The position numbers and the translations under genes were made by a program. From a virus (lineage: Duplodnaviria > Heunggongvirae > Uroviricota > Caudoviricetes), in IMG/VR virus record IMGVR_UViG_2695420646_000009: a stretch of 18,366 nucleotides of DNA; one strand, written 5' to 3'. The notes beneath the pieces were generated by a model. It saw nothing but the letters and a program-made list of their open reading frames with translations. It did no database searches and was not told the origin of the DNA. Within the stretch, counting starts at the first letter, position 1. Every line of letters begins with the position of its first letter. Shown here piece after piece: positions 11,419 through 12,195 of this stretch.

Positions 11419-11733
11419 TTAGCATTTTTTTGACCGCGCGTTTCCGGACGTATTCTGTTCTCCTGTCCCTTTATATCGTCGGAATACCCGCCGCTCTTCA
11501 AATCCCATTCCCAACTCAGAATGTAGTCTGTTGACCGCTTGTTTTATTTCGGTCAGGTTCACCGGTGAAACCGGAGTCCGGCGCGCCTTACGCAAACACT
11601 CTGCTCGTTTCTGTGCCGCCACTTTTCTTTTCTGGTCATCACTTAGCTGTACCATCACTTTTGCCCATCGTTCAGCTGCTCTCCGGTACAGTCCTTTTTT
11701 CTCCAGACATTCTGCCACGTGATCATGTAGCAT
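11419..11733 (-). CDS. Small basic protein, probable PerC-family (Pch-like) transcriptional regulator, 104 aa; moron gene
   Basis: MLHDHVAECLEKKGLYRRAAERWAKVM... contains the LE.KGL.RRAA.RW motif I associate with PerC/Pch proteins. ATG at 11733 is preceded by a GGAGGT SD. Followed upstream by a roughly 460 bp AT-rich leader. Family assignment is from memory of the motif, not a search. Confidence 0.5.
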   Translation of the reverse strand: MLHDHVAECLEKKGLYRRAAERWAKVMVQLSDDQKRKVAAQKRAECLRKARRTPVSPVNLTEIKQAVNRLHSELGMGFEERRVFRRYKGTGEQNTSGNARSKKC

Positions 11734-12195
11734 AAGTGACCTCCGATTATCTACAGACTGCCATCCTGAATTTACCTTCCCTTAATGAAATAACAATAAA
11801 AAACAAACCACGCAAAAACAATAAAACAACATACAAAAAAACTAAATAATAAAAAAATAATCACCTTATTTTATTATTTTTTAAGGGAGCAATTACTGAA
11901 CAAAAAACGCTGACTATATACTCAAAACCAAACAACTATTCTGCCAATCAGGTATCATGGCAACACACGGAATTACCGTGTTTTTGCCTTCTCTGCCCAT
12001 ACAATACGGGCATATACTTCATACTCTATTGTAATATTTCTATCCATGTGCCCCACTCTATTTACCTGTAAATAATATTCAAAATATTTATCACAGAAAT
12101 CGTTTTTGGCCATGAACTGAGCACACTATAAAGTCCGGAACTGACTCTTTGTTAAATTACCTTAACGTTACCAGTAACACCTTCATAACAAAACA

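Follow-up and report, generated by a model that had tools for sequence, protein, structure and literature searches.

The 18,366-nucleotide stretch of DNA analysed here (IMG/VR virus record IMGVR_UViG_2695420646_000009, class Caudoviricetes; referred to below as the window) carries a gene for a small basic protein between the spanin gene Rz and cos. A first-pass annotation, made from the sequence alone, had described it as a PerC-like regulator. We conclude with high confidence that this open reading frame (ORF) is a group-1 pch gene in the form of the pchA allele, that it is cargo of a lambdoid prophage placed between Rz and cos, and that its product is an anti-silencer of LEE1/ler in the enterocyte effacement locus (LEE). 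Identity, family membership, architecture, conservation and prevalence of the gene follow directly from the comparisons given below. Judged by these, the window gene is the already known pchA at the site where it normally lies; publications since 2004 have covered the gene, its position, its paralogues and the way it acts, and nothing in it is new as a discovery.

Identity of the pch gene

The ORF 11419..11733 on the minus strand begins with ATG and encodes 104 amino acids. The product is basic, with an isoelectric point of 10.3 and 25 lysine and arginine residues versus 12 aspartate and glutamate residues, and it contains the motif LEKKGLYRRAAERW at residues 10-23. The basic protein between Rz and cos and its PerC/Pch-like motif, both recognized in the first-pass annotation, were therefore found again. 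The profile search against the PerC family (PF06069), which had been proposed as a check, resulted in a match of 149.3 bits (E 3.8e-44) at a curated gathering cut-off of 22.6 bits, with residues 1-89 aligned to positions 1-89 of the 90 profile positions.

Comparison with Escherichia coli O157:H7 Sakai revealed identity in 104 of 104 residues to PchA (ECs_1091), and the coding DNA is also identical to Sakai pchA. The product is 99% identical to PchB and 98% identical to PchC; relative to the window protein and PchA, PchB has the exchange V6L and PchC the exchanges V6L and V58M. The group-1 genes pchA, pchB and pchC differ at three nucleotides (PMC5931665), and the window gene, with a length of 315 bp or 104 amino acids and a sequence within these at most three known variable nucleotides (identical to pchA), belongs to this group. 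The exact protein sequence is present on at least 1,000 contigs under the name "PchABC family transcriptional regulator".

The prototype of the family is PerC of enteropathogenic E. coli (EPEC), which is encoded on pMAR2/pEAF in the perABC operon and belongs to the same Pfam family as the window protein. In a tblastn search the perC gene on pMAR2 of EPEC E2348/69 showed 47.1% identity to the window protein over residues 2-88 (E 1e-17). The motif at residues 10-23 aligns with that of EPEC PerC, and the N-terminal motif common to both proteins is LEEKGFYRRAADRWAEIM (LExKGxYRRAAxRWA). EPEC PerC is shorter (89 amino acids) and lacks the basic C-terminal tail of the 104-residue window protein. The genetic context differs as well, as perC comes third in a plasmid operon under the control of PerA, whereas pch is a stand-alone prophage gene with a leader of its own. 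None of the NCBIfam models matched PchA, and a search of the PDB with the Pch sequence gave no related solved structure. A single-sequence AlphaFold model with four helices and a disordered tail (predicted local distance difference test score of 51) was too poor for a fold search.

Position between Rz and cos

Since Rz lies upstream of pch, and cosN and the terminase genes Nu1 and gpA lie downstream, pch occupies the Rz-to-cos slot; Rz1 accompanies Rz on the upstream side and ylcI is located next to pch on the downstream side (Table 1). In lambda, the bor gene is found in this slot and is transcribed opposite to Rz. Like pch, bor is cargo that the phage can dispense with and that acts on the phenotype of the host, but its product is a lipoprotein unrelated to Pch, and pch is co-oriented with Rz. 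The description of pch as a moron in the bor slot is correct. Phage BP-4795 does not contain pch. It has in common with the window the flanks in ylcI (window 11113-11247) and in Rz (12206-12724), with unrelated DNA between them. By this comparison the cargo spans about 11248..12205, and the label moron is warranted. The 5' part of ylcI belongs to the backbone common to BP-4795, and the 3' end of this gene lies within the variable cargo segment. The hairpin behind pch has a z-score of -2.7 and a U-run on the pch strand, as expected for the own terminator of a moron; it was missing from the list of a consensus terminator scan.

Table 1. Features of the window around pch. Positions are those of the whole window.
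Feature	Position	Strand	Evidence
pch gene (pchA allele), 104-amino-acid PerC-family regulator	11419..11733	-	PF06069 and identity to Sakai ECs_1091 pchA
AT-rich pch leader/regulatory region, 462 bp	11734..12195	-	GC 0.327; conserved pchA/B/C leader
Shine-Dalgarno sequence GGAGG, 6-10 nt before the pch ATG	11740..11744	-	read from sequence
46-codon ORF in the leader, probably not a protein gene	11973..12113	-	9 nonsynonymous:2 synonymous, no Shine-Dalgarno sequence
Bidirectional intrinsic-terminator-like hairpin, pch/ylcI-ynfO	11359..11386	both	A-run, 11-bp stem, U-run; z -2.7, -3.2
Rz spanin	12196..12663	-	PF03245 E 4.5e-45; annotated lysis protein in matching records
Rz1, embedded in Rz	12258..12443		annotated Rz1 lipoprotein in matching records
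YlcI/YnfO (DUF3950) family gene, convergent with pch	11113..11337	+	PF13132 E 1.3e-17; NF041551
Lambda-type cosN, 12 nt, GGGCGGCGACCT	10894..10905	-	exact match
Nu1	10201..10710		family profile search
gpA terminase	8301..10286		family profile search
Tn1722/TnAs1-like Tn3-family transposon, complete, 5,640 bp	12726..18365		38-bp inverted repeats; mcp, tnpR, tnpA

In strain Sakai, the group-1 PerC homologues PchA, PchB (ECs_2182) and PchC (ECs_2737) are encoded on the prophages Sp4, Sp11 and Sp14, respectively, in the same slot and with the same leader. Sp11 and Sp14 show the order Nu1-cos-pch-gap of about 463 bp-Rz/Rz1-…-R-S on one strand, as in the window, and the window layout Nu1-cos-ylcI-pch-leader-Rz/Rz1 matches both of them. 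The window gene is therefore located where group-1 pch genes are found, in a lambdoid prophage downstream of Rz/Rz1 and behind a conserved leader of about 463 bp. In Sp4 (region 23200..27400), the S-R-Rz-pchA block between IS629 and ISEc8 is flipped with respect to Q and to the terminase genes, whereas in Sp11 and Sp14 the S-R-Rz-pch block is collinear with Q; the cassette of the window is not inverted. A Tn1722-like transposon beside Rz is present in the window and absent from all three Sakai prophages.

Because pch follows Rz downstream and has the same orientation, late-operon transcription could also reach it, and in intact prophages read-through on induction would then contribute to its expression. 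RNA sequencing after treatment with an SOS-inducing antibiotic showed increased expression of pchB (log2 1.74) and pchC (log2 2.99) and a value of -0.33 for pchA (PMC5931665; strain PA20). That pchA did not respond to the SOS-inducing antibiotic, in contrast to pchB and pchC, may be due to the inversion of the lysis block in Sp4. The induction of pchB and pchC, together with the co-orientation of pch immediately downstream of Rz, would also fit a gene that works chiefly for the phage, its late-operon product being needed for lysis or packaging, with incidental effects on host virulence. We regard such a role as very improbable, as BP-4795 and similar lambdoid phages have unrelated DNA in place of pch, pch comes with a long regulatory region and a terminator of its own, defective prophages and plasmids have kept the gene, and the EPEC homologue is part of a plasmid operon with no phage context. 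Host-directed cargo is the reading that we follow.

The AT-rich leader

The DNA upstream of pch had been described as about 460 bp of very AT-rich non-coding sequence. Its length of 462 bp and its GC content of 0.327, compared with 0.528 for the phage part of the window, are in agreement with this description; at positions 11734-11900 the GC content is 0.27. The 462-bp segment with the lowest GC content in the whole phage part begins at 11746, and 0.2% of such segments are as AT-rich as the leader. The non-coding character is likely but not proven, as the leader contains an ORF of 46 codons (11973..12113). This ORF is open in all five copies compared, and some sources annotate it merely as "hypothetical protein". 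It has no match in Pfam or NCBIfam and no Shine-Dalgarno sequence, and a role as a protein is unlikely because nine nonsynonymous substitutions stand against two synonymous ones. We therefore rejected it as a gene and consider it probably non-coding.

The leaders of the window and of the three Sakai paralogues are on average 96% identical, and the window leader is about 98-99% identical to that of pchA, with a few single-nucleotide differences and two indels in T-runs. Most of the divergence between the window and pchA/B/C falls within a T-rich segment that lies some 60-160 nt upstream of the pch ATG. The leader accordingly consists of a variable proximal, T-rich half (about 11760-11900) and a highly conserved distal half (about 11900-12195). 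The same partition was observed with strain A25, whose Pch is 92% identical: the proximal leader shows 70-82% identity and the distal 300 bp show 94-99%, which makes the distal part better conserved than Rz or pch in this comparison. A scan of species-representative genomes with the single protein yielded only two relatives, from E. albertii (91% identical) and from an Escherichia sp. (77%), and these distant homologues share only the proximal 130 nt or so of the leader. The GGAGG Shine-Dalgarno sequence is kept in pchA/B/C, in strain A25 and in the E. albertii and Escherichia sp. copies. The Pch homologue of E. albertii NBRC 107761 (region 950..3290 of its sequence) has a shortened C-terminus and lacks the upstream Rz, and a FliE-like ORF is located about 1.7 kb upstream of it.

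The conservation of the distal leader may reflect binding sites of regulators or recent exchange between prophages. An Rfam scan of positions 10600-12900 revealed nothing in the leader. In RNA folding the proximal leader appeared unstructured (z +0.3) and the whole leader gave a marginal value (z -1.96); a riboswitch or thermometer was also considered and is unsupported by these z-scores.

The transposon beside the lysis cassette

The 38-bp inverted repeats of the Tn1722-like transposon are located at 12726..12763 and 18328..18365. The element encodes a PAS-HAMP-MCP protein, a resolvase and a transposase, with Pfam matches to MCP, Tn3 DDE and DUF4158. A sub-threshold Rfam match to isrL in the transposon end (12813..12900, minus strand; 18.3 bits versus a gathering value of 35, E 0.018) is probably due to chance. 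The transposon sits 62 bp upstream of the Rz start codon and parts the Rz-pch segment from R and S. Homology to phage ends at 12725, and the window itself ends one base past the right repeat. A target duplication of 5 bp (AAATA) is present at 12721..12725. The same junction was found in two further IMG/VR contigs, L010 and L011, and because the phage sequence resumes there beyond the duplication, running after AAATA into the lysozyme/holin region, we interpret the element as a simple transposon insertion. A chimeric contig, with prophage at the left and an IncF plasmid at the right, had been suspected from the complete identity of 11342-18366 to a plasmid of strain S50; it was ruled out by the 5-bp target duplication and by L010, which is continuous from the terminase to beyond the transposon. 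Between the window and L010 there are 73 mismatches, all of them in the terminase genes (8500-10500) and none in 10500-18366. This cluster suggests a patch of recombination in the packaging genes.

The insertion probably cuts the link between the late operon and pch. A further reading combines this event with the leader: the distal part (about 11900..12195), which is conserved better than any other part of the cargo module, would be a so far undescribed functional element that gates pch, either through an upstream small protein or as cis-acting DNA or RNA, and the transposon may in addition have changed the control of pch by cutting it off from the transcription of the late operon. We consider this combination distinctly unlikely. 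A lysis cassette broken by a 5.6-kb transposon, and the finding that many EHEC (enterohaemorrhagic E. coli) prophages are defective (PMC5931665), might also point to a relic, that is, an ORF that is neither transcribed nor translated in a degraded prophage. With an intact ORF identical to the functional pchA, an intact Shine-Dalgarno sequence and leader, and a transposon located outside the leader and beyond Rz, we regard a relic as extremely improbable, and we treat the window gene as a functional pchA.

Occurrence in E. coli genomes and on plasmids

The gene together with its leader was detected in 673 of 5,426 complete E. coli genomes, counted at a coverage of at least 80% of the gene-plus-leader interval. 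It occurs there in 1,882 places, with a median of 3 per genome, and every one of these places is annotated as "PerC family transcriptional regulator". The whole 2-kb stretch from Nu1 to Rz occurs in 661 genomes, and its best matches are from O145:H28 and O103:H2 EHEC and from other clinical isolates of the Shiga-toxin type.

Copies are also found on plasmids. Positions 11342..18366 of the window are 100% identical to the conjugative IncF plasmid A of E. coli S50, and several other E. coli plasmids of 59-101 kb (IncF where typed) carry the S-R-Rz-leader-pchA fragment; records with the pch-Rz fragment are NZ_CP010239.1, NZ_CP027549.1 and CP146553.1. The plasmid fragments share the left breakpoint at 11342, where they are fused to a gene annotated as the type III secretion system effector EspS, and the plasmid-borne copies adjoin type III effector genes annotated as EspS/EspV. 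One of the plasmids also carries genes of a type II secretion system (eptO, an A24 peptidase). A LEE activator of phage origin is thus mobile on plasmids as well, reminiscent of perC on pEAF.

These data bear on the possibility that the same pch gene resides in a LEE-negative host, where it would act on other H-NS-silenced or metabolic targets or be an unused passenger. Near-identical pch genes occur in strains that are not obviously EHEC (ML35, the dog strain D1 and isolates from chicken and monkey). The regulon of EPEC PerC includes the fim switch and nitrate/nitrite reduction (nap/nir and fimS; PMC5293775), and Pch is reported to bind many non-LEE sites (Abe 2008, as cited in PMC4456613). 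The closest full-length matches are nevertheless EHEC of the types O145:H28, O103:H2, O111 and O157, and the effector genes next to the plasmid copies argue in the same direction. A LEE-negative host thus seems unlikely, and we continue with pchA as an activator of the LEE.

Function and regulation of Pch

According to papers citing Iyoda and Watanabe (2004), ler and the LEE reach full expression only with pchA, pchB and pchC, which adherence requires as well. PchA/B/C and EPEC PerC are interchangeable at LEE1 (PMC5293775). Fukui et al. (PMC4764244) reported that Pch activates LEE1 only under repression by H-NS/StpA/Hha, that Pch expression lowers the occupancy of H-NS over the LEE and effector loci in vivo, and that, in vitro, Pch keeps H-NS off LEE1 DNA. 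Because activation of LEE1 requires this repression and H-NS is displaced, Pch is an anti-silencer and not an activator of the classical type. In relieving silencing by H-NS/StpA at AT-rich virulence promoters (PMC4764244), Pch resembles Ler and further antagonists of H-NS on horizontally acquired islands; Ler, however, is a paralogue of H-NS, whereas Pch has no detectable similarity to H-NS. The first-pass annotation had raised the possibility of a prophage-borne regulator of the Pch type that acts on host genes and on type III secretion. With the identity to PchA and the published activation of the LEE (PMC4764244, PMC5293775), this possibility turns out to be textbook EHEC biology.

Following the literature on the identical protein, the small, basic and helical Pch of the window would bind to AT-rich, H-NS-coated virulence promoters, above all LEE1/ler. 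There it would compete with the H-NS/StpA/Hha nucleoprotein complex, leading to de-repression of ler, and Ler would in turn activate the type III secretion island together with effector genes outside the LEE. Expression of pchA/pchB is reported to depend on LrhA and to be influenced by butyrate, through Lrp, and by the nitrogen status, through NtrC (PMC4456613, PMC13012123, PMC10714755). The 462-bp leader would be the regulatory region of pch itself, through which the LrhA, Lrp/butyrate and NtrC/nitrogen inputs could act. The pattern of gene and leader had also been called typical of H-NS-silenced regulators; the one pointer to silencing of the pch leader by H-NS is its AT-rich composition (GC 0.33).

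Several points weigh against this picture as a whole. That the window Pch activates LEE1 by displacing H-NS is very probable, taken jointly with the assignment as pchA, but it is carried over from the literature on identical PchA, and at the window locus itself the basis is sequence. A scan of the leader with the sigma-70 consensus gave a single weak match (-35 at 11963, -10 ending at 11935), and shuffled sequences gave more; published work points to a promoter that depends on LrhA. In PMC4764244 we found no statement on H-NS at the pch loci. The connection between cassette orientation and induction is indirect, as the RNA-sequencing data are from strain PA20 and not from Sakai.

In EHEC, attaching-and-effacing virulence has its master switches in the Pch proteins, and the number of prophage copies affects the level of type III secretion. 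The presence of pch in a sequence such as the window flags a virulence-associated prophage. Two descriptive points may be mildly useful in addition: the transposon that splits the lysis cassette beside pch, and the pch-Rz fragment that is carried by conjugative IncF plasmids beside effector genes.
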